Assembly (NCBI GenBank): GCA_963698305.1
Contig: CAVOQI010000006.1
Span: 28,506-92,505 of the forward strand
Reading direction: 5' to 3'
From: an uncultured beta proteobacterium
GTDB taxonomy: Bacteria; Pseudomonadota; Gammaproteobacteria; Burkholderiales; Burkholderiaceae_F
DNA: 64,000 nucleotides
Part shown: in pieces, positions 6,666 through 45,718 of the stretch
Layout of the letters: the number at the start of each line of letters is the position of its first letter
Position numbering within the stretch: the first letter of the stretch is position 1
Program-made: the position numbers and the translations under genes
The notes under the pieces: model-generated
What the model was told of the DNA's origin: nothing
Seen by the model: only the letters and a program-made list of their open reading frames with translations
The model's database searches: none

Positions 6666-9388
6666 GGGGCCCGTGCGCGGCGCTTCGCGACGATGTTGCC
6701 AAAGCCCCCCGCGATCAGCGCCGTGACGTCGAGCAGCACCGGGGTCAGGGCGAGCCCGCCGGGGGAGGCAAGGTATAGCGGCGTCCACGTCGGACCGAAT
6801 TTCGCCTTGTAGCGCCGTAGGCCCTCGAAGTTGTAGAAGTGCTCGGCGTGCCGGTAGATGAACGCACCGACCCGGGGCCAGACCGCCGCTTCGGCGCCGG
6901 CCTCCAGTCCGGCGAGCGGCGCCATGCCGAAGTTGAACCAGTGGTAGCCGTGGTCGCGACCCCATGCGAACAGGCCCGAGAAGAGCATGTCCATGGTCCC
7001 GTTCGGCGCCTCCGGACGATGCCGCATCAGGTCGACGGACAGTTCCTCCCGCCCGGCGCCGAGCCACAGGTTGGCGAACGCCATCACCTCGTCGCCGTGC
7101 CGCACGATCGCCGCGGGGAATCGGCTCAGGTAAGCCGCGTCGAACGACGCGTTCGAGAAGCCTTTCTCGCTCGTCGCCTTGCGCTCCAGCCACGCGCGGG
7201 AGATCGCGTCGAGGGTCGGCAGCAGCGCGGCGACGCCGTCCTGCCCCACGATTTCGAACCGCAATCCCTGGCGCGCGAGTTTCGCGCACGCCTGTCGCAG
7301 GTCCCGGTGCGCCGGCGCATCGAGCGTGAATCCACGCAGATCGACGCGTGCCTCCTCGCCGAGCGGCGTGAGCGCCAGGCCCAGTTCCGCGTACAACTGC
7401 CGGCGCTGCGGACGCACCTCGAAGAACACGCACCAGCCGTCGTGGCGGTCGACCAGTTCGGCATAACGCCAGGCAAGCTCGCGCACGCCCGCCTCGGCGC
7501 CGACCGGGTCCCCCATCGCGATCCAGCTGCGGCCCAGGCGTCCGTACATCAGGAACGCATCGTCGGCATCGCTGAACAGCAGCGCCTTGTCGCCGCGATA
7601 GACCAGGTTGGCGTAGGTCCAGGGAGAGCGTTCGACGATCGGGCGAGCGCGCTCGATCTGCGCCTGCGGCGTCGCGGCCCTGGCGTGGACCGCGGGCCGG
7701 ATCAGCCGGTGCAGCGCGAACACGACGAGCAGCGCGACGGCTCCGATGAGGGCGCGCAGCGAGCGCGTAGCCTCGGCCTGCGACGCGAACTGCCACCAGG
7801 ACTGCGCGGCCATCGCCTCGTCGCGATGCGCGAACAGCATGAGCCACGCGGATCCGCCGACCACGACGGCGCACGAGACGAGCCACGCCGGCGAGAACGC
7901 GGTGTCGAAGAGCGACGAGCGGCGGTAGAACTGCGAACGCAGTGGCAGCAATGCCAGCAGGACGGCAGAGAGAACGAACGCCTCCTCGAAGTCCCAGCCC
8001 TTCAGCAGCGACAGCAGCGCGCCCGCCGCCAGCAGGCCGGCGGCGAGCCACCAGGCCGCGTTCAGTCGCCGCTGCAGGCCTCGCGCGACGACGAGCAGCG
8101 CTGCACCGACCAGGCTCGCGAGGAAGTGCGACACCTCGATCACCGGCAGATCGAACAGCTGCCGCACCAGGTCGAGCCGCCCGATGGCCGCCGGCAGCGC
8201 TCCCGAAAGAAGCAGCAACGCACCCGCGACGAAGGCCATCGCCCCGAGGAGCATCGGCGCGAACCGTGTGAACGAACGCGAAGCGCGCTGCAGCCAGGCG
8301 ATCGCACCCGGCGCGAGCTGGGCACTGCCGCGCACCCCGGCCGCGCCGAGGCCGACGAGGAACGGCAGCAGCAGGTAGATCGCGCGGAAGGCGAGCAGCG
8401 CCGCGATCAGGCCGCGCACCTCAACACGCGGCACGAGCAGCGCGATCATCGCTGCCTCGAACACCCCGAGGCCGCCCGGTACCTGGCTCGCTGCCCCGGC
8501 GACCAGCGCGACGAGGAACACCGACAGGAACGCCGCGAACCCGATGTCCGCGGTAGCCGGCAGCAGCACGTAGAGCGCGCCCGCCATCAGCAGCAGGTCG
8601 GCGCACTCGATGGCGATCTGCCCGAGCGTGAGCGCCGGCGACGGCACGTCGATGCGCCACGGCCCGAACGTGAACGCATGACGGCGTGCGCACAGCCCCA
8701 GCCACGCGGCGAGGATGACCAGCAGCAGCGTCCCGAGGGGGCGCGAGGTGTCGAAGCCGAACCGCAGCACGGCGGGCAAGGACACCGGGGCCGCGATGAG
8801 GACCGTACCCGCGAGCGCGAGGTAGCCGACCCAGAAGCCGATGCTGCAGAAAAGAACCACGGCGCCCACCTGCCGCGCGGACAGGCCGGCGTCCGTGTAG
8901 ACCCAGAAACGCACGGCGCTGCCCGTCAGCAGCGTGTTGCCGACGTTGTTGCCCAGCGCATTCGAGAGCAGCGCGGCGACGGCGGCGCTGCGCAGGGGAA
9001 CGGTCTGCCGCACGTGGCGCAGCGCGAGCACGTCGAGACCGACCAGGACCGTGTACCCGGCGAGCGTCATGACGATCGATGCTGCGACGGCGTACCCGGA
9101 CAGCGACGCCAGTGCGGAGGCGAGTTCGCGATAGCTGTGCGCCGACAGCGCCTCGCGCAGCGACCAGAGCGCAAGCGCGAACAGCGCGAGGCCCACCCAC
9201 GGCATGACCCGCTGCCCGAATGCGGAGGCGCGCGCGGCGATCCTCCCGAGGCGGCGGTCCGCGGCCGAACCAGCGCTCGGCGCGCGCTGTGTGTGCGGAG
9301 TCGATGCCATGGGTGCGGAAGCCTCGCCGACTGCCACGCGGACGAGGCCGTGTCTGCGGGGATCGAAGTTCCCGCTCATCGGGAACAA
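6662..9388 (-). CDS. mprF: Bifunctional lysyl-phosphatidylglycerol flippase/synthetase MprF-like protein
   Basis: 908-aa intact ORF with a poly-TM N-terminal half and a C-terminal DUF2156-type synthase half (FLMYGRLGRSWIAMGDPVG...). The start could be 9388 or ATG 9310. The stop overlaps the downstream ATG as ATGA. Confidence 0.88.
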   Translation of the reverse strand: MFPMSGNFDPRRHGLVRVAVGEASAPMASTPHTQRAPSAGSAADRRLGRIAARASAFGQRVMPWVGLALFALALWSLREALSAHSYRELASALASLSGYAVAASIVMTLAGYTVLVGLDVLALRHVRQTVPLRSAAVAALLSNALGNNVGNTLLTGSAVRFWVYTDAGLSARQVGAVVLFCSIGFWVGYLALAGTVLIAAPVSLPAVLRFGFDTSRPLGTLLLVILAAWLGLCARRHAFTFGPWRIDVPSPALTLGQIAIECADLLLMAGALYVLLPATADIGFAAFLSVFLVALVAGAASQVPGGLGVFEAAMIALLVPRVEVRGLIAALLAFRAIYLLLPFLVGLGAAGVRGSAQLAPGAIAWLQRASRSFTRFAPMLLGAMAFVAGALLLLSGALPAAIGRLDLVRQLFDLPVIEVSHFLASLVGAALLVVARGLQRRLNAAWWLAAGLLAAGALLSLLKGWDFEEAFVLSAVLLALLPLRSQFYRRSSLFDTAFSPAWLVSCAVVVGGSAWLMLFAHRDEAMAAQSWWQFASQAEATRSLRALIGAVALLVVFALHRLIRPAVHARAATPQAQIERARPIVERSPWTYANLVYRGDKALLFSDADDAFLMYGRLGRSWIAMGDPVGAEAGVRELAWRYAELVDRHDGWCVFFEVRPQRRQLYAELGLALTPLGEEARVDLRGFTLDAPAHRDLRQACAKLARQGLRFEIVGQDGVAALLPTLDAISRAWLERKATSEKGFSNASFDAAYLSRFPAAIVRHGDEVMAFANLWLGAGREELSVDLMRHRPEAPNGTMDMLFSGLFAWGRDHGYHWFNFGMAPLAGLEAGAEAAVWPRVGAFIYRHAEHFYNFEGLRRYKAKFGPTWTPLYLASPGGLALTPVLLDVTALIAGGFGNIVAKRRARAP

Positions 9389-27608: not shown

Positions 27609-29290
27609 ATGCCATTCGACATCGCACTGAAGCGCTTCTGTCTATCCCATGCCGGGTCGTTCGTCGTGCCCGCCGAGTGCCTCGATCGCACCGGATTGCA
27701 GGCGGAACTCGCGCGCACGCTGGTCGACGAGCGGCGCATTTCCGAAGACCAGCTGCGCTGCCTCGAACGCGGCTACGCGCTGTACCGGGAACGCTGCGCG
27801 GATCTGTTCGCGCGCGCGCCCGGCGCATGGTTTCCGCCGCGGCAGACCAACCTGCTGATCGTCGAGGACGGCACCGATGTGCTGCCGTACCTGGAGCCCT
27901 TCGCCGGCACATCGGCGCTGCTCTATCTGTCCGACCTCGACACCGATCCCGAGTACGTCGCGCTGCTGCTGCTGCACATCGAGCGGCTGGCGCTGGTGCG
28001 CTCGGTTCGCGCCGCCGTCATCTGCAACCTCAGCTACTGGTTCGATCGCGACGCCGAGAGCCGGCGCGCGTTCGTCCGCGCGGCCGCCAGCGCTCGGCGT
28101 CCCGATGCGGCCGGGTTCGTCGCGCTCGCCGAGGCGCTCGCCTGGGTCGACGACCTGCTGCACGATCCGCTGCGCCCGCCCGCGGGCGAGCCGGACGAAC
28201 CGTACCTCGGCGTCAACGACACCGGCCTCTATGTTCCCAAGCGGCTGCAGGGCGAACTGCTGAAGCTGGCGGAGGCGGCCGAGGATGCCGTGCGGCGAGC
28301 GATGCGCCTGCACGGGACGGCCGTCGCGAGCCGCGGGACCGCGGCGCTGAACGAACTATGCGAATGGCTCGAGCGCGAGCGCGCGCACGTGGTCGTCGTG
28401 AGCCCGGACGGTTCGACCGCGTGGACTCCCGACGCGACCAGCGCGGCCGACATGCGGCGCGCGTTGCACGATGCCGATGACGCCGCGGTGGCCAGCATCC
28501 ACGCCGACCTGCGCGTGATCCACGAACGCTCGCGGCAGTTTCTCGACTGCGTGCGCGATGTGGAGTCGCTGCCCTCGCACTGCCCGGTCCTCGAGACCGG
28601 CGGCGGCGCCTACGTCGACGCCGCCCGGCGCGCCGTTGTCTACGAGCTCGTGCAGCCCGCATTCGACGCGCGACGCAGCGTGGCGCCGCCCTATCACCGC
28701 CTTCTGCTCGGCGCGCGCGTGGTGCACGAGTGGGGCCACATCGCGCACACCGCGAAGATGATCGGCGTGCCGTCAGACCGCCGGGCCGATTACGCGCGCG
28801 CGCGTGCCGAACTCGGAGAAACATTCGCCGCCATCGTCGGGCGCATGCCCACGCGGCTGCACGACGACATCGAGAGCGACATCGCGGGGCTGGCCGCACG
28901 CGCGGGCGGCCTGGACAAGGCGCTGGCGCGCAAGACGCTGGCGCGCGTCGGCGACTACCTCGCCAACATGCTGGGCGAGCGCCTGCTTCCCCCGAGGAAA
29001 TGCAGGCGTACGTGCGGACCAACGTGCGGAACCACTTCGGCGAGCGGCTGGGCGTCGTCAGCGAACTGGCCCGCTACGCCTACGAAGTGCACTACCTGCG
29101 CCTCGCCGGCCTGCCGCGCGCGTACTTCTTCGGCACGTCGCGCTTCCCCGAATATTTCATCGCGTCCGGCATCGTCAGCGAGGCGGACACGCACGCGCTC
29201 TTCGACGCGGCGGGGGCCGTTCTCGACTGCCACGCGTTCGACGACAGCCTGATCGCGCTGCCTCCGGCGCCTGCCGCGCGTCAGGCCTGA
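27609..29290 (+). pseudogene. Cytoplasmic hypothetical protein with HExxH motif; one frame break
   Basis: ORF 27609..29252 carries VVHEWGHIAHTAK. After ...ANMLGERLL the sequence continues as PEEMQAYVRTNVRNHFGERLG... in ORF 28730..29290. The break is in the C5 run 28989-28993. Confidence 0.6.
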
Positions 29291-30555
29291 GCCGTGCGCG
29301 CCGCCGGCCGCCGCAACAGCCAGATGACGATCGACAGGTTGAGCAGGTTCCACGCGATGCCGTTGATGAAGGCCGCGCTGTAGGAGCCGGTGAGGTCGAA
29401 CACCTCGCCCGACATCCAGCCGCCGAGCGCCATGCCGAAGAGCGTGGCCATCACCACCAGGCCGACGCGCGCACCCGCTTCCCGCGGCGCGAAGAACTCG
29501 CGGACGATGATCGCGTAACTCGGCACGATGCCGCCCTGGAACAGCCCGAACAGAGCCGATACCACGTAGAGCGACCACAGGCCGTCGAACGGCAGGTACA
29601 GCATCAGCGCGACCGCCTGCAGCGTGGAGCCGATCAGCAGCGTGCGCAGTCCGCCGATGCGATCGGCGATCCAGCCCGACGCGAGCCGGCTGACGATGCC
29701 GAAGCCGAGCATCAGCGACAGCATCTGGGCGCCGGCGGCCGCGCCGTAGCCGAGGTCGCCGCAGTACGCGACGATGTGCACCTGGGGCATGGACATCGCC
29801 ACGCAGCAGGCCAGCCCCGCGATCACGAGCAGCGTCTGCAACGCGCCGGGCGAGATGCCGAGCGACACCTGCGTGTCGCGCACCGCCGGCACCGCCGCGG
29901 TCGTGTGGCCGGCCGGCGAACGACGGCGCAGGGCCAGCGTGAGCGGCAGCATCGTCACCAGGCAGAAGACGCCGATCGTGATGTGCGTGTGCCGCCAGCC
30001 GATCGCTTCGATCAGGTGCTGCACGATCGGCGGCCAGACCGTGCCCGCCAGGTAGTTGCCGCAGGCGACGATCGACACCGCGAGACCGCGCCTGCGCTCG
30101 AACCAGTGCGAGACGTCGGCGAGCAGCGGGCCGAAGGTGGCCGAGCTGCCGAGGAAACCGATGAACAGGCCCTGCGCCAGCGCGTACATGAAGAGGCTCG
30201 GCGCCAGGCCGGCGAGGATGTAGCCCGCGGACAGCGCGATCGTCGCGCCGAACAGCGGCCGCGTGATGCCGTAGCGATCGCTCAGGCGGCCCATCATGAT
30301 CCCGCCGAAGCCGAAGCCGACCATCGTCAGCGTGTACGGGAACGATGCCGCGCCGCGGTCGACGCCGAAGTCGGCCTGCACCGCCGGCAGCGCAACCACC
30401 ACCGACCACATGCCGATGCCGCCGAGCGTCGCCATGGCGAGCGTGACGGCCAGCCGCCACCAGGCGGTGCGGCTGTCGATGACGCTGGAGGGCGCGGGCG
30501 AGGACGGCGACGAGGTCAACGCGGATGAGTCAGGCAGGAGGGGAGCGGGCAGCAT
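29281..30555 (-). CDS. MFS transporter
   Basis: 424-aa intact ORF with about 12 TM segments and the MFS loop motif GRLSDRYGITRP. The start is uncertain. Confidence 0.85.
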   Translation of the reverse strand: MLPAPLLPDSSALTSSPSSPAPSSVIDSRTAWWRLAVTLAMATLGGIGMWSVVVALPAVQADFGVDRGAASFPYTLTMVGFGFGGIMMGRLSDRYGITRPLFGATIALSAGYILAGLAPSLFMYALAQGLFIGFLGSSATFGPLLADVSHWFERRRGLAVSIVACGNYLAGTVWPPIVQHLIEAIGWRHTHITIGVFCLVTMLPLTLALRRRSPAGHTTAAVPAVRDTQVSLGISPGALQTLLVIAGLACCVAMSMPQVHIVAYCGDLGYGAAAGAQMLSLMLGFGIVSRLASGWIADRIGGLRTLLIGSTLQAVALMLYLPFDGLWSLYVVSALFGLFQGGIVPSYAIIVREFFAPREAGARVGLVVMATLFGMALGGWMSGEVFDLTGSYSAAFINGIAWNLLNLSIVIWLLRRPAARTAQA

Positions 30556-30612
30556 ACCCGCCGCCGGTCGCGTTCGACGTCATGCGTGCCATCGAGAAGG
30601 ATCACCAAAGGA

Positions 30613-30635
30613 AACAGCCCGCAGCGCGGGCTGTT
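30613..30635 (-). terminator. Intrinsic terminator of small-peptide cassette A
   Basis: AACAGCCCGC-agc-GCGGGCTGTT. On the minus strand it is followed by TCCTTTGG. It lies 78 nt after the sORF stop. Confidence 0.55.
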
Positions 30636-30712
30636 CGTTCGTCGGTTCCGTCCGCGCTCGCGGCGGCGCCGGCAGGACCGGGCGTGCGTCAACCGGGAAC
30701 GGTCGGCGCTGC

Positions 30713-30886
30713 TCAGCCCACCGCGACCGGACGCATCGTGACGGTCTCCATCGCCATGGTGGGCGGCGCCGCTTCGAAGCTGCCATCGGGCTGCATCCCG
30801 ATCACCGTTCCGCCAAGAACCAACGCACTGCTCAGCACGGCTAGCAGGAAGGAAATCACTCGCACTCGCGCAGATGTGGTTTTCAT
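30713..30886 (-). CDS. Small single-pass membrane peptide, paralogue A (57 aa)
   Basis: Not in the ORF track, being under 60 aa. ATG at 30886 is preceded by GAGAGGA. Translation: MKTTSARVRVISFLLAVLSSALVLGGTVIGMQPDGSFEAAPPTMAMETVTMRPVAVG. It shares its pattern with 31185..31352. Confidence 0.6.
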   Translation of the reverse strand: MKTTSARVRVISFLLAVLSSALVLGGTVIGMQPDGSFEAAPPTMAMETVTMRPVAVG

Positions 30887-31059
30887 CGTTCGGTCCTCTC
30901 ATTCCTCGTGGACCCGCGGGACATCTCGCTTTCTGGTGCTTCGCGTGTCCTGCACTCCACGGTTCGGACTCTAGGTAACTGGCCCTCGGAAGGCAGGGGG
31001 CGGATGCGGCACGCGCGACGCCGGAAATTCGACAGGGCCGTTCGTGAGGCTGAAATGCA

Positions 31060-31085
31060 AACAGCCCGGCGCGGGCCGGGCTGTT
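31060..31085 (-). terminator. Intrinsic terminator of small-peptide cassette B
   Basis: AACAGCCCGGC-gcgg-GCCGGGCTGTT 11-bp stem. On the minus strand it is followed by TGCATTT. Confidence 0.6.
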
Positions 31086-31184
31086 CGTGTTGCGGGGGAC
31101 TGCGATGTCGCGGCGGTCGTCTGCGTCGACGACGCAGGCCGGACCCGGCGCCAAGCCAGCGATGCTCGGCTGGCTGCTCCAGGC

Positions 31185-31352
31185 TCACTGCACCGCGGTC
31201 GGCTTGACCGTCACCTTCTCCATGACCACGACCAGCGGCTGCGACTCCGCGCTCGATTGCATCCCAACGACGGTGCTGCCCAGCACCACCACCGTGGTGG
31301 CAACGGCCATGACCAGGGACATCAGGCGGGCTTGGGTGGAGATCGTTTTCAT
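31185..31352 (-). CDS. Small single-pass membrane peptide, paralogue B (55 aa)
   Basis: MKTISTQARLMSLVMAVATTVVVLGSTVVGMQSSAESQPLVVVMEKVTVKPTAVQ, the C-terminal part of ORF 31185..31481. SD AGAGAGGA lies upstream. Only synonymous differences relative to the copy at 35282..35450. Confidence 0.65.
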   Translation of the reverse strand: MKTISTQARLMSLVMAVATTVVVLGSTVVGMQSSAESQPLVVVMEKVTVKPTAVQ

Positions 31353-31626
31353 CTTGCGGTCCTCTCTGCTGTTCGGTTCGCTTCGTTCGTCTCGTGCTGC
31401 CATGAAACGAACTGTAGGCAGCGCACCGCTGCGCTTCCAGCCGATTGCGACGGACTGCGCGGATCGCGGCGTGAACTGCAACCCCCGTTCACGCCCCCAA
31501 ACAGCCCTTCGCTCCGTTCACTCCGCCTTCCCGACGTTTCGTCGCCCCTGGATGCAGTTCAGCCCCGGTTTCGCGCGTCCCGTCGCGCACGAGGCGCGAA
31601 AGGAGGCGTTCGGTAGCATCCGCAGC

Positions 31627-32358
31627 GTGAATTCCACGCGTTCCGTCCGCCGCTCACGGGTCGCCGCGCTGCTCGCCGCCGCGCTGGGGGCCCTGGCCGG
31701 CACGGCCTGCGCGCAATCGACGCCGCTCCGCACCGTGCCGGACACCATCGAGCAACGGATGCAGGCATGCACTCCGTGCCACGGCAAGGAAGGCCGTGCG
31801 AGTCCGGTGGGGTATCTGCCTCGCATCGCCGGCAAGCCCGCGGGCTACCTCGCGAACCAGTTGATCAACTTCCGCGACGGCCGCCGCTACAACGCGGCGA
31901 TGTCGCATCTCGTCGAACAGTTGTCCGACGACTACCTGCGCGAGATCGCGCAGTATTTCGCGGGGCTCGACCTGCCCTACCCGCCGCCACCGCCGCCGAG
32001 CGAGCGCGAGGGTGTGCTGCGGCGGGGCGAGTCGATCGCCACGCGCGGCGACCTCAACCGTCGCGTCCCCGCGTGCACGCAGTGCCACGGCTACGCGCTC
32101 ACCGGCGCGTTGCCCGCCATCCCCGGGCTGCTCGGCCTGCCCGCCGATTACGTGATCGGACAACTCGGCGCCTGGAAGACCGGCAACCGTCACGCGACAG
32201 CGCCCGATTGCATGGCCGACGTGGCGAAGCGGCTGCCGGCGGAAGACGTGCGCGCGGTTGCCGTGTGGCTCGCCTCCCGTCCGGTACCGCCTGGCGCGAA
32301 GCCGGCGGCGCAACCCGACCTCCCGCTGCCGCTCGACTGCGGCAGCGGCGTGCGCTGA
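31627..32358 (+). CDS. Dihaem c-type cytochrome (cytochrome c4-like)
   Basis: Signal peptide RRSRVAALLAAALGALAGTACAQ and two CxxCH motifs (CTPCH, CTQCH). The start is uncertain: GTG 31627 or ATG 31553. Confidence 0.8.
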   Translation: MNSTRSVRRSRVAALLAAALGALAGTACAQSTPLRTVPDTIEQRMQACTPCHGKEGRASPVGYLPRIAGKPAGYLANQLINFRDGRRYNAAMSHLVEQLSDDYLREIAQYFAGLDLPYPPPPPPSEREGVLRRGESIATRGDLNRRVPACTQCHGYALTGALPAIPGLLGLPADYVIGQLGAWKTGNRHATAPDCMADVAKRLPAEDVRAVAVWLASRPVPPGAKPAAQPDLPLPLDCGSGVR

Positions 32359-32360
32359 CG

Positions 32361-33627
32361 ATGAAGCGCTGGTGGCCCTTTGCCGTCTGGCTCGCGGTCG
32401 CGCTGCTCGCGGCGACGGCGCTCGTCGCCGCCCTGAACTTCCGCGACGAGGCACCGGTCGACGACAGCGGCGTTCACCGCGACGCCCGAGCAGGTGCAAC
32501 GCGGGGCGACCCTTGCGCGCGCCGGCAACTGCGCCGCCTGCCACACCATGCGCGGCGGCGCGCCGTACGCCGGCGGACGCGCGATCGAAACGCCGTTCGG
32601 CGTCGTGTTCGGCTCCAACATCACGCCGGACGAGCAAGACGGGCATCGGTCGCTGGTCGGCGTCGCACTTCTGGCGCGCCATGCACAACGGGCGCTCGAA
32701 GAGCGGGCGCCTGCTGGTGCCGGCGTTTCCGTACACCAGTTTCACGCGCGTCACGCGCGAAGACTCGGATGCGCTCTACGCCTACCTGCGCACCGTTGCC
32801 AGCCGTGGAGCAACCGAACCGCGAACACGCGCTGCGCTTCCCGTACAACACGCAGGCGGCGCTCGCGGTGTGGCGCGCCGTGTTCTTCCAGCCCGGCACC
32901 CACCGGCCGGATCCGGAGCAGTCCGCCGAGTGGAACCGCGGCAGCTACCTGGTGCACGGCCTCGGCCACTGCAACGCCTGCCACGGTGGCCGCAACCTCT
33001 TCGGCGCCACCCGCGGCCCGCTGGCGATGAGCGGCGGCGTCAGCCCCATCGACAAGTGGTACGCGCCATCGCTCGCGACGTCCGCCGAAGCGGGTGTCGC
33101 GGATTGGGATGACGCAGCACATCGTCGACCTGCTGAAGACCGGCGTCTCCGCGCGCGGCTCGGCGCTCGGCCCGATGGCGGAGGTGGTGTTCCGCAGCAC
33201 GCAGCACCTGGACACAGCCGACCTGCGCGCGATGGCCGTGTACCTGAAGAGCCTGCCGCAATCGGCGGCGCCCGCCCCCCGCGCGGCGTCGCCGCCCGCG
33301 GCCGCGACGCTCGAGCGCGGTGGCACCGTGTATCGCGCGCAGTGCGAAGGCTGTCACGGCGCGCAGGGCGAAGGCGCGCGCGGCGCGTACCCCGCGCTTG
33401 CAGGCAACCGTTCGGTGGTGATGGATCCGCCGGTCAACGTGGTTCGCGCGGTGCTGAGCGGCGGCTTCCAGCCCGCCACCGCGGGCAATCCGCGCCCGTG
33501 GGGCATGCCGCCCTTCGGCCACGTGCTCGACGACGCCGACGTCGCGGCGGTCGTCACCTTCATACGCAACCAGTGGGGCAACCGCGCGGCGGCGGTATCG
33601 GGCAACGAGGTGCAGCGGTTGCGGTGA
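32361..33627 (+). pseudogene. Trihaem c-type cytochrome (dehydrogenase cytochrome c subunit-like); about 4 frame breaks
   Basis: MKRWWPFAVWLAVALLAATALV, then CAACH, CNACH and CEGCH, are spread over ORFs 31767.., 32494..33030, 32258..33112 and 33094..33627. The switches are near 32480, 32640, 32800 and 33100. Confidence 0.75.
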
Positions 33628-33677
33628 GCAAGCTCGCGGCGTTGCGGGAGTTGTCCCCGCGAGCCGATCTCGCGGAC

Positions 33678-34992
33678 TCAAATCTCCGCAAACCGGCTCT
33701 TGCCCTGGCTCACCGCCGCGTGCTTCAGCCCGCCGAGGAAGCGCGAGCGCAGGACGTCGCTCATCAGCGCCCGCTTCACCGGCGTGAGCCGGAGGAAGCC
33801 ACCGAGACATGCGCGGGCGAACGCGTGCGTCAGGCTGGCGGGATTGTCGAAGAGCTGGTTCTGCAGCGTGCCGCGCTCCAGGCACTGCAGGATGATGCGT
33901 TCGAACGTCGTCTCCGGATGCAGCACGCGCTGCTTGCGCTTGTGCAGCCTCATCGCGGCCGGCTTGCAGCGCAGGGTGCACACGCCGCAGCCGATGCACA
34001 GTTCCTTGTCCACGACGGGCCGGCCGAACTTGCGGAAGCGCGGCTCCGGGTCCGGCACCCGACCGATGGCCTGGATGGGGCACGCCCGGCTGCAGATGCC
34101 GCAGCCGCTGCAGCGCTCGCGGTCGCTCTCGGCGATGTAGCTGGATGTCACCACGGCATTGGGATAGCCGTGCCGGCTGATGCCGCGCAGCACGTTGCAG
34201 CAGCACCCGCAGCAGTGGCACATGAAGGTGACGTTGCGCTGCACGTTGTCGGCGTTCAGCACCAGGCCGAGGTCGCGCGAGCGGGCGATGTTGTCCAGCA
34301 TCTCCGCTTTCGAAACCTCGCGCGCCAGGCCGTTGCGCACCATGAAGCCGACGGTGGCGTCGCCGAACGACGAGCAGGTTTCCAGCGGCGCCTTGCACGT
34401 GCGCCCACCCGCGTGCTCGTGTTCGTGGCGGCACGAGCAGATCCCGATCGCGATACCGGTCGGCGCGATCGACGATGGCGGCGGCCTTCTCGTAGTCCAG
34501 CACCTCGACGTAGTCGTCGGGCGCGATGGAACCGTCGTGCGGCACCGCCCGCATCAGGGACACCTGCTGCCCTTCGCCGAAGTTCGCCCGGTAGAGCCCG
34601 CCCTCCTCGAGGTAGTCACGGAACAGGCGCGCCCAGCGGTCCATCGGCAGTTCGCTGCCGGTGCGCATCATGGTGAACTCGAAGATGCCGATCACCATCG
34701 GCGACGGCGCGTAGTAGTAGTCGTCGCCGACGAACACATCCATCACCAGGCCCCGCGGGCACAGGCTTGCCAGCTGGGCTTCCAGCTTCGCGCGCGGAGT
34801 GCCGGTCACCTTCTCCAGGCGCGTGATGCGCGAGAAGCCCCACGGCATGGCGGCGACGAGGCGCGCGTCATCCTCGGAGTAGAGCTCGCCCAGCAGCGCC
34901 CGCAGCTTGTCGCTCCAGGGCGCGCGCGTCGTGAGCCCGTCGATCTTGCGGCCCAGTTCGCGGTAGATGTCCTTGCCGACCAGATGACCCAT
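33678..34992 (-). pseudogene. Poly-cysteine (Fe-S)-binding protein with 4Fe-4S dicluster domain; one frame break
   Basis: N-terminus MGHLVGKDIYRELGRKIDGL... is in ORF 33040..35157 and switches near 34460. The rest is GIAIGICSCRHEHEHAGGRTC...MCHCCGCCCN...CSGCGICSRACP...CIGCGVCTLRCK in the frame of ORF 33678..34343. Confidence 0.7.
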
Positions 34993-35156
34993 TCGATACT
35001 CCGCGGCCCCGCTCGGAACACCCAAGCACGCTGACGACACGCCGCGCAGTTCATTAAAGGCCACCGGTCCGCTTCGTCGTTGACCTGTGGCAGGACGGTC
35101 TTGATTCCCGGAACGCGCGGCGTCGCGAGTGCGGCGTTCCGCGGGTACGAGATGCA

Positions 35157-35182
35157 AACAGCCCGGCGCGGGCCGGGCTGTT
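35157..35182 (-). terminator. Intrinsic terminator of small-peptide cassette C
   Basis: Same AACAGCCCGGC-gcgg-GCCGGGCTGTT stem as 31060..31085. Confidence 0.6.
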
Positions 35183-35281
35183 CGTGTTGCGGGGGACTGC
35201 GATGTCGCGGCGGTCGTCTGCGTCGACGACGCAGGCCGGACCCGGCGCCACGCCAGCGATGCTCGGCTGGCTGCTCCAGGC

Positions 35282-35450
35282 TCACTGCACCGCGGTCGGC
35301 TTGACCGTCACCTTCTCCATGCACCACGACCAGCGGCTGCGACTCGGCGCTCGATTGCATGCCGACGACGGTGCTGCCCAGCACCACCACCGTGGTGGCA
35401 ACGGCCATGACCAGGGACATCAGGCGGGCTTGGGTGGAGATCGTTTTCAT
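35282..35450 (-). pseudogene. Small membrane peptide, paralogue C (copy of B) with a 1-nt insertion near codon 43
   Basis: Identical peptide to B through ...SQPLVVV. An extra C (catgCacc versus catgacc) then sends the frame on to 34806, which is listed ORF 34806..35450. Confidence 0.6.
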
Positions 35451-35847
35451 CTTGTCGGTCCTCTCTGTTGGTTCGGTTCGCTTCGTTCGTCTCGTGCTGC
35501 CATGAAACGAACTGTAGGCAGCGCACCGCCTGCGCTTCGCGAGCCGATTGCGACGGACTGCACGGATCGCGGCGTGAACTGCAACCCCCGTTCACGCCCC
35601 CCACAGCCCCTTCCTCCGTTCACTCCGCCTTCCCGACGTTTCGTCGCCCCTGGATGCAGTTCAGCCCCGGTTTCCACTCTCGCCCGGGTCATTGGCGATG
35701 AATCCACCTCGGTCGACGAAAGGTCGTCTACCCCCACCGGCGATCACCCCCTCTACCCCCTCCGGCGCGACTTGATCAGCCGCAATCCGCTGCAACCTTC
35801 GATGGCGACACTGCCCGCATCGAAGGGCACTCACGCGAAGGAACCCC

Positions 35848-43274: not shown

Positions 43275-44366
43275 TCACGGCGCGAGGTCGACCACCCGCA
43301 CCCGCACCTTGTGTTCCTTGCCGGCGCGCACGATGGTGAGTTCGGCGTCGCGCCCGATGCCGGCTCGGTCCAGTTCGTTGGCGAACTGCGAAGGTGTGCC
43401 GGTCAGGCGGCCGTTCACGGCGACGATGACGTCGCCGACGTCGTTGGAGCGCGGATTCGCGGGCCGCAGCCCGGCCTGCGCGGCCGATGAACCCGGCCGC
43501 ACGTTCTCGATCACCACGCCGCGGATGCCAGCGCGCGCCACGATCTCGGGCGGATACGGAACGATGCCGATGCCGGGGATCGGCGCGCGGCCGCGCGAGA
43601 TCAGCGAGGGCACGATGCGATTGACGAGATCGACCGGGATCGAGAAGCCGACGCCCGCCGAGCTGCCGGAGGCCGAACGGATCGCCGTGTTGACCCCGAC
43701 CAGCCGGCCGGCGCTGTCGAGCAGGGGCCCGCCGCTGTTGCCGGGATTGATCGCGGCATCGGTCTGGATCACGCCCGCGACCTCGCGATAGCCCGAGGTC
43801 GGCAGTTCGCGTTCGAGCGCGCTGACGATGCCGCGCGTCAGCGTGCGCTGCAGGCCGAACGGGTTGCCGATCGCGAAGACGGACTGTCCGACCTTCAGCT
43901 CGCTCGACGAACCCATCGGGATCGGCCGCAGGTCCTTCGGCGGACGCGACAGCTTCACCACCGCGAGGTCGTACTCCGGCGCGCGCCCGACCAGGGTCGC
44001 GGGAATCGGATCGCCGGCATCGAGCTGGACGAACACCTTGCGCGCGCCTGCGACCACGTGATTGTTGGTGACCACGTGCCCCGCGCTGTCCCAGACGAAG
44101 CCGCTGCCCGCGCCCTGCGTCGCGGTGACGAACCAGCCCGACTGCTGCAGGACTTCGGTGGTGATGTAGGCCACCGACGGCGCGGCGTTCTGGAACAGAT
44201 CGACGACCGCCCGTTCGCTGTCGGGCAGCGCGCCGCGCGGCGTCACGGGCCGCGGTTCGGCGCGCGGGGGACTTTGTGCAATGGCCGTCAGCGCCGTGGT
44301 CGCGGCCACGGCCGCGGTGCCGACCACGGCGGCGACGCGCTTCAACCAGCCCGATCGGAATGTCAT
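43275..44366 (-). CDS. HtrA/DegP-like S1C serine protease with one PDZ domain
   Basis: Catalytic triad contexts TNNHVV, YDLAVVK and GNSGGPL. C-terminal PDZ ([18 protein letters not shown]). ATG at 44366. Confidence 0.88.
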
Positions 44367-44635
44367 GGTGTCGTTCTCTTTCCGCGTCCGCAGACGATGC
44401 GACCGCGGCGTAGATGAGGCCATGCCCGGAGGATCACAAGTCCACGGTACGGCGTGCGTCCGGCTGGACGCCGGTTCGTCGGCGTGCGGTGGCGCTTCGC
44501 GCCCTCCGCCGCGTCGGACTGCAGTTCGTGCCCGGCTTCGCGCGCTTCATCGCATCCCGGTGGCCCGGCCGCGACGCGCTGCCTACAGTGCGCACATCGA
44601 CGACACGCGTCGTCCGCACCGACAGGACTTTCGCC

Positions 44636-44836
44636 ATGCTGAAGAACGCCGAAACTGTCTTCTTCCTGCTCGCCACGCTGGCCGCGCTCGCGCTGCCCGC
44701 CGTGCCGGCAGTCCAGGAGGCGCTGACGGCCGACTACGCCACGGTCGAGGCGGCCTTGCCGACCTGGATCATGGAACGCGTCGTGATCGTTGCGCCCGAC
44801 GTCGACCCCCCTCAGCAGGTGGCCACGGTTCGCTGA
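44636..44836 (+). CDS. Small hypothetical protein with N-terminal hydrophobic segment (66 aa)
   Basis: MLKNAETVFFLLATLAALALPAVPAVQE... has high GC3 in this frame. The SD is weak and I recognise no family. Confidence 0.4.
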   Translation: MLKNAETVFFLLATLAALALPAVPAVQEALTADYATVEAALPTWIMERVVIVAPDVDPPQQVATVR

Positions 44837-45049
44837 GAGCCTGTGCATCCTGCGCGGCCGGCGCCCCCCCGCCGGCCGCACCTCCTTTGCCGCCGTTCCC
44901 ATCCCGCACGGAAGGTCATCCGTGCCGCCCCCGGTCAACCGCGGGCGGTCGGCCGCCGTTCGAGGCAGAATCGAGGGCTGTCGCCGGATCGCCCGCACTC
45001 ATCGAGCGGCCCGGCGCGCACCTGACCGAGTACCTGACTTGGAGCATTC

Positions 45050-45718
45050 ATGACCCGTCGTCTGCAAACGTCCCTGCTGGCCCTCGCGGCCGCCTCCCTG
45101 CTGGCCGCCTGTGCCTCGTCCGGGTATGAGCCCAACACCACGCGCGACACCGGCATCGGCGCCGCTGCCGGCGCCGCCATCGGCGCGCTGGCGCACTCGA
45201 GCAACCGCACGCACGGCGCCCTGGCCGGCGCCGCGATCGGCGCGCTCGGCGGCTACGTGTGGTCGAGCCAGATGGAAAAGCAGAAGAAGGACATGGAGCA
45301 GGCCACGCGCGGCACCGGCGTTCAGGTCACGCAGACCGCCGACAACCAGTTGAAGCTGGAAGTGCCGAGCGACATCTCGTTCGACGTGGGCCGCGCCGAC
45401 GTCAAACCCAACTTCGCGCCGATCCTCGACAAGTTCGCGCAGTCGCTGAACCAGAACCCCGCGTCGACCGTGCGCATCATCGGTCACACGGACAGCACCG
45501 GCAGCGACGCCGTGAACAATCCGCTTTCGGTCAACCGTGCCGCCAGCACGCGCGACTACCTGACGGCGCGCGGCGTCAGCAGCCAGCGCATCGCCATCGA
45601 CGGCCGCGGCTCGCAGCAGCCGATCGCCGACAACGCGTCGGAAGCGGGCCGCGCGCGCAATCGTCGCGTCGAGATCTTCGTCGCCGAAGCCTCGCAGGCC
45701 GCGCCCGCGCCGCGCTGA
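45050..45718 (+). CDS. OmpA-family lipoprotein with glycine-zipper region
   Basis: Lipobox LLAACAS. GIGAAAGAAIGALA...GALAGAAIGALGG. OmpA C-terminal domain (IIGHTDSTGSDAVNNPLSVNRA...NRRVEIFV). Confidence 0.88.
   Translation: MTRRLQTSLLALAAASLLAACASSGYEPNTTRDTGIGAAAGAAIGALAHSSNRTHGALAGAAIGALGGYVWSSQMEKQKKDMEQATRGTGVQVTQTADNQLKLEVPSDISFDVGRADVKPNFAPILDKFAQSLNQNPASTVRIIGHTDSTGSDAVNNPLSVNRAASTRDYLTARGVSSQRIAIDGRGSQQPIADNASEAGRARNRRVEIFVAEASQAAPAPR

Follow-up and report, generated by a model that had tools for sequence, protein, structure and literature searches.

Some tiny proteins, made when their regulon is induced, have an export signal or anchor at the N-terminus and expose a short tail to the periplasm; examples are MucE, the activator of AlgW, and MgrB and AcrZ, small single-pass membrane modulators. 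Among envelope-stress genes, cpxP is known for a 3′ untranslated region (UTR) that yields a small RNA (sRNA), CpxQ. Hydrophobic peptides of similar size are found in toxin–antitoxin (TA) systems of type I, which the T1TAdb article defines by a toxin mRNA and an antisense RNA antitoxin (PMC8594479), and whose mRNAs usually have a sequestered Shine–Dalgarno (SD) sequence, that of aapA1 being hidden by an interaction of the 5′ with the 3′ end over a long distance (PMC5416894). Here we analyse a 64,000-nt stretch (the window) from an uncultured betaproteobacterium (contig CAVOQI010000006.1, positions 28,506 to 92,505), for which a preliminary description had reported three minus-strand small open reading frames (sORFs; here s1, s2 and s3, of 57, 55 and 55 aa), each with a GAGAGGA-type SD and a GC stem-loop of its own, s3 carrying a 1-nt insertion; all of these features are present in the sequence. 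In our reading, to which we give about an even chance, each sORF with its flanking elements (a cassette) stands alone as an inducible gene whose product is a very small exported protein, and the copies form one regulon rather than TA pairs.

A profile hidden Markov model (HMM) built from relatives matched the s1, s2 and s3 ORFs and no others in the window. A profile search of public data retrieved 92 clusters of 55–57-aa proteins; a broader profile including 58-, 59- and 62-aa relatives retrieved 409 clusters, all of 55–62 aa. The three sORFs are thus more than chance ORFs. The peptides of s1 and s2 are 47% identical, and the residue pattern drawn up in the preliminary description is common to both. 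When 1.84 billion representatives were searched exhaustively with an HMM, 74 were returned at 50% identity, which makes this a narrow family; all named members are annotated as "hypothetical" and stem from betaproteobacterial or Burkholderiaceae metagenome-assembled genomes (MAGs) or from metagenomes. Among 53 distinct coding sequences, the ratio of nonsynonymous to synonymous differences (pN/pS) was 0.17 for the closest and 0.30–0.37 for intermediate pairs, and entropies of 0.88, 0.61 and 1.10 at the three codon positions marked the third as the most variable. These sequence comparisons show the peptide frame to be conserved and under purifying selection. The best Pfam match, DUF5337, stayed below the cutoff (E = 0.053), NCBIfam and PADLOC gave no match to the family, and among PDB sequences none fell below E = 0.19. 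Judged by these searches, the sORFs genuinely belong to a multi-copy family, so far undescribed, of exported or membrane proteins of ~55–62 residues. Of the possibilities raised beforehand, a novel small-protein family is therefore the one that stands, its frame being conserved under purifying selection in many copies and without a Pfam, NCBIfam, PADLOC or PDB match; the comparison across relatives that had been proposed for copy number, synteny and selection likewise found the genes to be multi-copy and individually syntenic, with pN/pS of 0.17–0.37.

AlphaFold models the peptide as one confident helix (residues 2–37) with a low-confidence tail. Family alignments revealed invariant G25, T27, G30 and M31 and near-invariant V28 and Q32, giving A..(V)LG(S)TV.GMQ as the invariant core of the main family. 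On inspection, the alignments display the n-, h- and c-region layout, with small residues at –3 and –1, of a Sec signal peptide or anchor: a basic n-region (K2/R9, or R/K12), a 15-residue h-region and the c-region G(–6)-S-T-V(–3)-A-G(–1), directly after which the main family has an invariant M-Q. By its sequence, the peptide thus resembles a Sec signal peptide or anchor with a periplasmic tail of ~25 aa behind it, in which an acidic patch precedes the motif φ-φ-A-φ-E-R/K-V-T-φ-T. A 151-aa protein that begins with the family's first 36 residues (P0231) has no Pfam domain and was uninformative on the signal peptide. MucE, MgrB and AcrZ share this layout; they differ in having no sequence similarity to the family, whose copy number is also much higher, and the family's C-termini (…TRTN, …ATR, …AVQ, …AVG) are unlike the aromatic PDZ ligands of MucE or outer-membrane proteins.

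A genome scan found 44 loci, at three to five or more cassettes per MAG, dispersed and each ending in its own terminator; MFD00905.bin.1.72 harbours five family copies. Gene calling and neighbour clustering placed the cassettes in about ten unrelated neighbourhoods, each conserved among genomes. These include an ExbB–ExbD/TonB-dependent receptor locus; an MFS gene with aminopeptidase P (and TetR/hydrolase genes); O-acetylhomoserine sulfhydrylase / proline iminopeptidase / CBS genes with an Aas-like acyltransferase and chorismate synthase; AspRS, GlnA-type 3 (GlnA3) and patatin; an ABC ATPase; malic enzyme; and, as in the window, RIC(ScdA)-hemerythrin, FMN reductase, Fer4, two cytochrome c genes and an MFS gene. 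As such diversity argues for autonomous genes, the earlier suggestion of an accessory subunit of the neighbouring redox proteins, i.e. of cytochrome c or Fer4, is ruled out. A mobile element, miniature inverted-repeat transposable element or integron cassette was likewise rejected: copies occupy fixed syntenic sites, no terminal repeats or target duplications were seen beyond the cassette, and no attC core sites.

The same neighbourhoods bear on whether the sORFs are cis-regulatory leader peptides, whose translation or membrane insertion would modulate terminator read-through into the next gene (s1 into MFS, s3 into Fer4) by attenuation or as a MifM/SecM-like monitor. In the window, both genes follow on the same strand, ~50 nt (MFS start) and ~157 nt (Fer4) beyond the respective terminators, the 3′ UTR hairpin begins at the stop codon, and the 24–31 residues between hydrophobic segment and stop fall within the range where membrane insertion pulls on a nascent chain. 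Across the family, however, the next gene is convergent for about half of the cassettes, leaving nothing there to regulate, which speaks against a general attenuator role; inspection of 3′ UTR sequences and folds disclosed no alternative antiterminator pairing, and it is the peptide sequence that is conserved, beyond mere translation. We regard a leader peptide as very unlikely.

Copies of the cassettes share more than the peptide. Upstream of the 55-, 58- and 62-aa sORFs, conservation extends over about 170 nt, even among paralogues with no more than 40–50% peptide identity. In this block, the near-invariant site A (GCAGTTCAC) is followed after 12 nt by site B (GCRSYCCGT) and then by a TAnAGT hexamer, at a distance from site B of exactly 33 nt in 46 of 53 non-redundant cassettes, with the ATG 38–67 nt further downstream. 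In these 53 cassettes the hexamer varies at position 3 alone, as expected of a –10 box, and we read it as one; a promoter scan of the window region gave no acceptable –35 element and no consensus –35/–10 pair. Upstream of site A lie three further, inverted copies of the 9-mer with 11-nt spacers (GTGAACTGC, (GC)GACGAACTGC and GGATGAACGGC). RNAalifold detected no consensus RNA structure on either strand of 44 non-redundant upstream regions (–1.6 and –4.5 kcal/mol), and conservation without RNA structure suggests that the block is promoter/operator DNA rather than structured RNA. The "long conserved structured leaders" of the preliminary description hence survive in part: the upstream block is conserved, but it has no consensus RNA structure and s1 lacks it altogether.

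Other identities for the block were discarded. A riboswitch or structured leader was rejected on the RNAalifold result and on the lack of compensatory change in the box-to-box complementarity; the GG-N10-GC of a σ54 promoter fits few copies and is not conserved; and no consensus of LexA, Fur, PhoB, FNR, MerR, RpoH or RpoE/ECF fits. Copies of the 57-aa subtype, in place of a 9-N12-9 block, have another conserved upstream element, (T)CGAATTTCCGGCG...CCTAGAGT, and an 81–86-nt 5′ UTR; every one of them, s1 included, is located directly behind a 55-aa cassette.

The arrangement of the block resembles the targets of LytTR-type regulators. Their sites consist of two direct or inverse repeats of 9–11 nt with 11–13-nt spacers, as in the GGCATTTCAT repeats bound by YpdB at yhjX (PMC4847170); AgrA-type promoters lack optimal core elements (PMC4227749); and AlgR recognises the 9-mers CCGTTCGTC and CCGTTCATC, the promoter-proximal site being oriented opposite to the distal ones (PMC4064291). 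Sites A and B and the distal boxes of the cassettes have this repeat length and spacing, and their position is fixed, immediately upstream of a core promoter whose –35 is weak or absent and whose –10 is predicted. The reverse complements of the distal boxes contain the exact AlgR 9-mers given above, found verbatim as GCGACGAACGGC in loci L031 and L035 (consensus GGATGAACGGC). Together, the 9-bp repeat architecture, the missing –35 and the AlgR-like 9-mers suggest an activator-dependent promoter. Compared with AgrA at P2/P3 and the psm genes, YpdB at yhjX and AlgR at algD and rhlI, the cassettes have in common 9-bp repeats 11–12 nt apart right before a promoter without a good –35, extra sites in the opposite orientation, 9-mers similar or identical to AlgR sites, similarity between the YpdB site and cassette GCAGTTCAT, and small peptide genes as targets. 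They differ in that their array holds five to six sites instead of the usual pair, and in coming from uncultured Betaproteobacteria, the likeness being one of architecture.

The MFS gene after s1 offers a further parallel to yhjX, which may be coincidence. In NCBIfam it came closest, below the cutoff in both cases, to the L-lactate MFS transporter and to the oxalate/formate antiporter family, to which E. coli YhjX belongs, whose gene is controlled by the LytTR regulator YpdB.

A search of the window with a model of the upstream block uncovered a fourth cassette, on the plus strand, that the first inspection had overlooked. Its 66-aa sORF belongs to a separate conserved family of 64–67-aa sORFs (105 clusters) that is flanked in every case by a divergent gene for an HtrA/DegS-like protease on one side and a gene for an OmpA-like glycine-zipper lipoprotein on the other, a constant proximity to an HtrA/DegS-type protease that recalls MucE as AlgW activator. 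In relatives, sites A and B of this cassette are both perfect GCAGTTCAY repeats, and the rigid upstream architecture is common to all 55-, 58- and 62-aa cassettes and the 64–67-aa family. Homology between the two protein families was not demonstrable (hhalign probability 3.7%); the sole stretch that hhalign aligned is the C-terminal motif, 'vvalERvTv' in the main and 'iMERVVi' in the 64–67-aa family, the latter having V(–3) and A(–1) before V-Q-E after a different hydrophobic segment. Unlike hydrophobic segments combined with the same promoter and a similar tail motif suggest, at the sequence level, that function resides in the periplasmic tail and that the N-terminus serves as export signal or anchor.

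Downstream of the promoter, the 5′ UTR is short, A/C-rich and without consensus structure, and the SD was fully paired in 12 of 44 local folds. In s1, s2 and s3 alike, GAGAGGACCG lies 7–9 nt 5′ of the ATG. The 3′ UTRs plus terminators fold significantly better than shuffled sequences (z of –2.4 to –6.0), and the terminators of s1, s2 and s3 share the arms AACAGCCCG...CGGGCTGTTT. Most 58- and 62-aa cassettes and several 55-aa ones form a long imperfect hairpin from the stop codon, presenting an 8-nt loop (CCCGGUCC or ACCGGUCC) that is more conserved than the peptide itself, being invariant across subtypes with 40–50% protein identity. In the loop, CGGUCC(U) shows complementarity to AGGACCG, the extended SD that the family conserves. 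The six closing pairs of the loop helix are 79% paired, with one pair switching between CG and GC in seven sequences, and the covariation score exceeded 499 of 500 shuffles and all slid controls, which we take as modest covariation backing for the helix. On the 3′ UTR ends of s2 and s3, the sole Rfam match, BSnc120, a Brucella sRNA, scored 31.6 and 26.6 bits against a gathering threshold of 114, most likely a chance match driven by the terminator.

Such a loop might mean that the cassette's main output, or one of two, is RNA, the hairpin with its terminator being a released sRNA or a cis element that pairs with AGGACCG-type SDs, including those of its own family, and the peptide a second output. 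The invariance of the loop, its complementarity to the SD, the folding z-scores with some covariation and the precedent of cpxP/CpxQ favour this idea; as with cpxP, a small stress-type envelope protein gene would have a 3′ UTR as conserved as the ORF, or more so, with the terminator at its end. Yet the conserved element here is a hairpin loop, known from sequence, and not a linear seed. Loci L043 and L044 and the 64–67-aa family lack the motif, it is degenerate in s2 and s3 of the window, covariation comes from one compensatory pair in one clade, and the peptide is clearly selected in its own right. We therefore consider an RNA product quite unlikely. Less likely still, in our estimate, is a dual-output module in which a LytTR-type signal would switch on many copies to yield both a periplasm-facing peptide and a stable 3′ UTR hairpin RNA, whose loop CCCGGUCC would pair with the SDs of the family and possibly with other mRNAs. 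If it were true, the regulon of peptides would have a self-limiting, RNA-mediated feedback.

In the reading that we prefer, of autonomous genes for exported proteins, a LytTR/AlgR-type regulator would bind the 9-bp repeats and switch on all copies together, and the short, A/C-rich, unstructured leader with its strong SD would allow efficient translation. The N-terminal 30–33 residues would act as Sec signal peptide or signal anchor, so that the tail of 23–29 residues faces the periplasm, where it may act on an envelope target, as a free peptide or tethered to the membrane. The structured 3′ UTR and terminator would stabilise the mRNA, and the loop, by its complementarity to the extended SD, may feed back on translation. 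In the window, gene conversion keeps s2 and s3 nearly identical, s3 is broken by its frameshift, and s1 follows directly behind s2 with a different upstream region.

Several observations weigh against this reading. The lineage with the cassettes is known solely from MAGs. The N-terminus may be cleaved off or may stay as a membrane anchor, and its conserved segment is unusually invariant for a mere signal peptide. TAnAGT as –10 box, and with it the position of the transcription start, is a prediction from hexamer conservation, and s1 has no 9-N12-9 boxes and an upstream region unlike that of s2 and s3. The LytTR/AlgR-type regulator is suggested by site architecture and 9-mer similarity; in ~0.8 Mb of fetched 12–16-kb loci there was no LytTR gene, only a KdpE-like response regulator. 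The degenerate 9-mer is moreover common in this G+C-rich genome, and since it is common in coding sequence, its enrichment in the window was discarded as uninformative. As for feedback, consistent pairing of SD and 3′ UTR loop was not borne out by whole-transcript minimum-free-energy (MFE) folds, where it occurred in only ~8 of 50, and s2 and s3 carry a degenerate form of the motif (GCCGGGUCCGG), for which pairing is predicted.

The preliminary description had also raised candidate type I toxin-like genes, whose peptides would insert into the inner membrane and depolarise it, with synthesis checked by an RNA antitoxin or an SD-hiding mRNA fold, as in hok/Sok or aapA1/IsoA1. Shared with hok/Sok, ldr/Rdl and aapA1/IsoA1 are a single-helix hydrophobic peptide of <62 aa with basic N-terminus, several chromosomal copies dispersed in intergenic regions, each with its own promoter and terminator, and a long structured 3′ UTR with SD-complementary sequence. 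The hydrophobic segment, though, fits a Sec signal peptide equally well. Hok, too, has the size of the family peptide and the N-in/C-out layout predicted for it. The invariant loop CGGUCC(U), complementary to AGGACCG, recalls aapA1 (PMC5416894), and in L039 and L042 the SD flank GGAUUG and the motif UGGUCC would still be pairable through G-U pairs. The systems part at the antitoxin, for which the T1TAdb definition asks for an antisense RNA (PMC8594479): no antisense or divergent sRNA gene was detectable, in scans that would have missed non-σ70 promoters and a trans sRNA encoded elsewhere. A σ70-like antisense promoter was absent from the window region, and under a relaxed rule 56 non-redundant cassettes gave 0 antisense versus 19 sense promoters; neither strand of the upstream block held a terminator or consensus hairpin, conservation stopped at the cassette's terminator with none beyond, and no Rfam family, antitoxins included, reached threshold. 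The 5′ UTR is unstructured, and the SD does not appear consistently sequestered, either in local folds (fully paired in 12/44) or in whole transcripts (pairing with the 3′ UTR loop in ~8/50). An elaborate activator-type promoter with multiple repeats, deep conservation of paralogues anciently fixed at syntenic sites and a conserved C-terminal tail are likewise atypical of type I loci; s3 is frameshifted, though neighbouring genes are as well. With no tested RNA-level feature in support, what remains of the likeness is a small hydrophobic peptide in many copies with their own terminators, and we deem a type I toxin unlikely.

LytTR regulators also drive agrD and the PSMs, comC and the pln and blp bacteriocin genes in Gram-positive bacteria (cf. 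PMC4227749, PMC6193735). The likeness of the promoters to LytTR targets, which classically include small peptide genes, together with multiple dispersed paralogues and a T-x-x-G...E/D pattern that loosely recalls lasso precursors, could thus hint at precursor proteins from which antimicrobial or signalling peptides, modified or secreted, are made, i.e. ribosomally synthesised and post-translationally modified peptides (RiPPs), bacteriocins or pheromones. In none of the about ten contexts, however, were there maturation enzymes, C39-ABC exporters or immunity genes; the peptides have no Cys residues and no double-glycine leader; their N-terminal part is the most conserved, the C-terminal part being patterned and not hypervariable; and conservation is lacking at the acidic position that a lasso ring requires. 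A lasso or other RiPP precursor was rejected on these grounds, and we hold precursor peptides in general to be most improbable.

Table 1. Elements of the cassettes and neighbouring genes. Positions refer to the window unless a locus (L) is named.
Feature	Position	Strand	Remarks
s1 sORF	30713..30886	-	57 aa (MKTTSARVRVISFLLAVLSSALVLGGTVIGMQPDGSFEAAPPTMAMETVTMRPVAVG), 57-aa subtype; HMM match 2.2e-28; orthologues P0001-P0021
s1 Shine–Dalgarno	30894..30900	-	GAGAGGA (extended GAGAGGACCG); family-wide conserved form GAAAGGACCGAAC
s1 –10-like TAGAGT (predicted)	30968..30973	-	81 nt before ATG; CCTAGAGT conserved in L045 and L005 copies of 57-aa subtype
57-aa-subtype upstream element	30974-31030; L045 about 7860-7920; L005 about 2560-2620	- (window)
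s1 structured 3′ UTR	30636..30712	-	family motif CGCCCGGTCCTGC (30672-30684); z = -2.36 for 3′ UTR plus terminator
s1 intrinsic terminator	30607..30635	-	AACAGCCCGCGCTGCGGGCTGTTTCCTTT; MFS gene start ~50 nt beyond
MFS gene	29281-30555	-	starts only ~50 nt past s1 terminator
s2 upstream regulatory block	31417..31572	-	nhmmer E = 3e-30; distal inverted boxes CTGAACTGC, GACGAAACG, GTGAACGG...
s2 sites A and B	31471-31479; 31450-31458	-	A GCAGTTCAC, 12-nt spacer, B GCAGTCCGT, then 33 nt
s2 –10 element TACAGT (predicted)	31411..31416	-
s2 sORF	31185..31352	-	55 aa (MKTISTQARLMSLVMAVATTVVVLGSTVVGMQSSAESQPLVVVMEKVTVKPTAVQ); AlphaFold: single helix, residues 2-37
s2 structured 3′ UTR	31086..31184	-	degenerate motif GCCGGGTCCGG; z = -3.80
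s2 intrinsic terminator	31052..31085	-	AACAGCCCGGCCCGCGCCGGGCTGTTTGCATTT
s3 upstream regulatory block	35517..35674	-	nhmmer E = 1.1e-29
s3 sites A and B, –10 TACAGT (predicted)	35574-35582; 35553-35561; 35511-35516	-	36 nt between site B and –10
s3 sORF	35282..35450	-	s2 copy with 1-nt insertion (extra G ~35322); frame shifted after residue 43
s3 intrinsic terminator	35149..35182	-
BSnc120 sub-threshold match	31040-31129; 35137-35226	-	Brucella sRNA; distal 3′ UTR plus terminator
Direct repeat copy 1	31052..31575	.	whole s2 cassette; partner 35149-35677
Direct repeat copy 2	35149..35677	.	whole s3 cassette; ~525 nt
Cytochrome c gene	32361-33627	+	421 aa
Fer4 gene	33678-34992	-	437 aa
HtrA/DegS-like protease gene	43275-44423	-
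Fourth cassette overall	44521-44889	+	nhmmer block-model match 44517-44590
Fourth cassette promoter block	44521..44589	+	site A GCAGTTCGT 44521-44529, 12 nt, site B GCGCTTCAT 44542-44550
Fourth cassette –10-like TACAGT	44584-44589	+	33 nt after site B
Fourth cassette sORF	44636..44836	+	66 aa (MLKNAETVFFLLATLAALALPAVPAVQEALTADYATVEAALPTWIMERVVIVAPDVDPPQQVATVR)
Fourth cassette GC-rich hairpin	44854..44889	+	GCGGCCGGCG-C7-GCCGGCCGC, then ACCTCCTTTG; terminator-like, read from sequence
OmpA-like lipoprotein gene	45050-45718	+
Hairpin loop examples	L018:7441-7500; L025:8181-8240; L041:5538-5585; 30672-30684

The s2 and s3 cassettes form a direct-repeat pair that encloses ~3.6 kb with two cytochrome c genes and the gene for the 4Fe-4S protein Fer4. 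Within the window genome the repeats are 96.4% identical, compared with 80–82% identity, at both positions, to the syntenic copies in a related MAG (L045), whose own two 55-aa cassettes (2403-2920 and 7307-7831) are 97% identical to each other. As identity within genomes exceeds that between them, the duplication must have preceded the divergence of the two genomes, with homogenisation of the copies since; on these comparisons, the near-identity of s2 and s3 reflects gene conversion. The ORF substitutions, GTT/GTC, GGG/GGC and GCG/GCC, are just those described at the outset, and all three were confirmed as synonymous, but in a pair homogenised by gene conversion they are on their own weak evidence for selection; valid evidence comes from the family-wide pN/pS.

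The counterpart of s3 at the syntenic locus L045 is intact. The frameshifted 214-aa read-through ORF of s3 recurs verbatim as a predicted protein (P0225) in a public collection, so the frameshift is present in the deposited assembly. Relative to L045, the 421-aa cytochrome c gene is split into five reading-frame segments by four frameshifts, and a single frameshift interrupts Fer4, as one does s3; of the window's flanking genes, those for MFS, RIC and FMN reductase are intact; a 179-aa gene of L045 is not present in the window. Frameshifts in the segment between the direct repeats are either real decay or a local assembly error.

Very small exported proteins are commonly overlooked by annotation, and the present analysis defines an unannotated family of >400 clusters, and a sister family with ~100 more, in soil betaproteobacteria of a widespread uncultured lineage. 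It also illustrates that hydrophobic sORFs need not be type I toxins just because they are multi-copy and self-terminated. With 9-N12-9 repeats whose distance to the predicted –10 box is fixed at 33 nt, the cassettes present a precise, testable cis-regulatory code, and a promoter so conserved would let a pattern search find the whole regulon together with its LytTR-type regulator.

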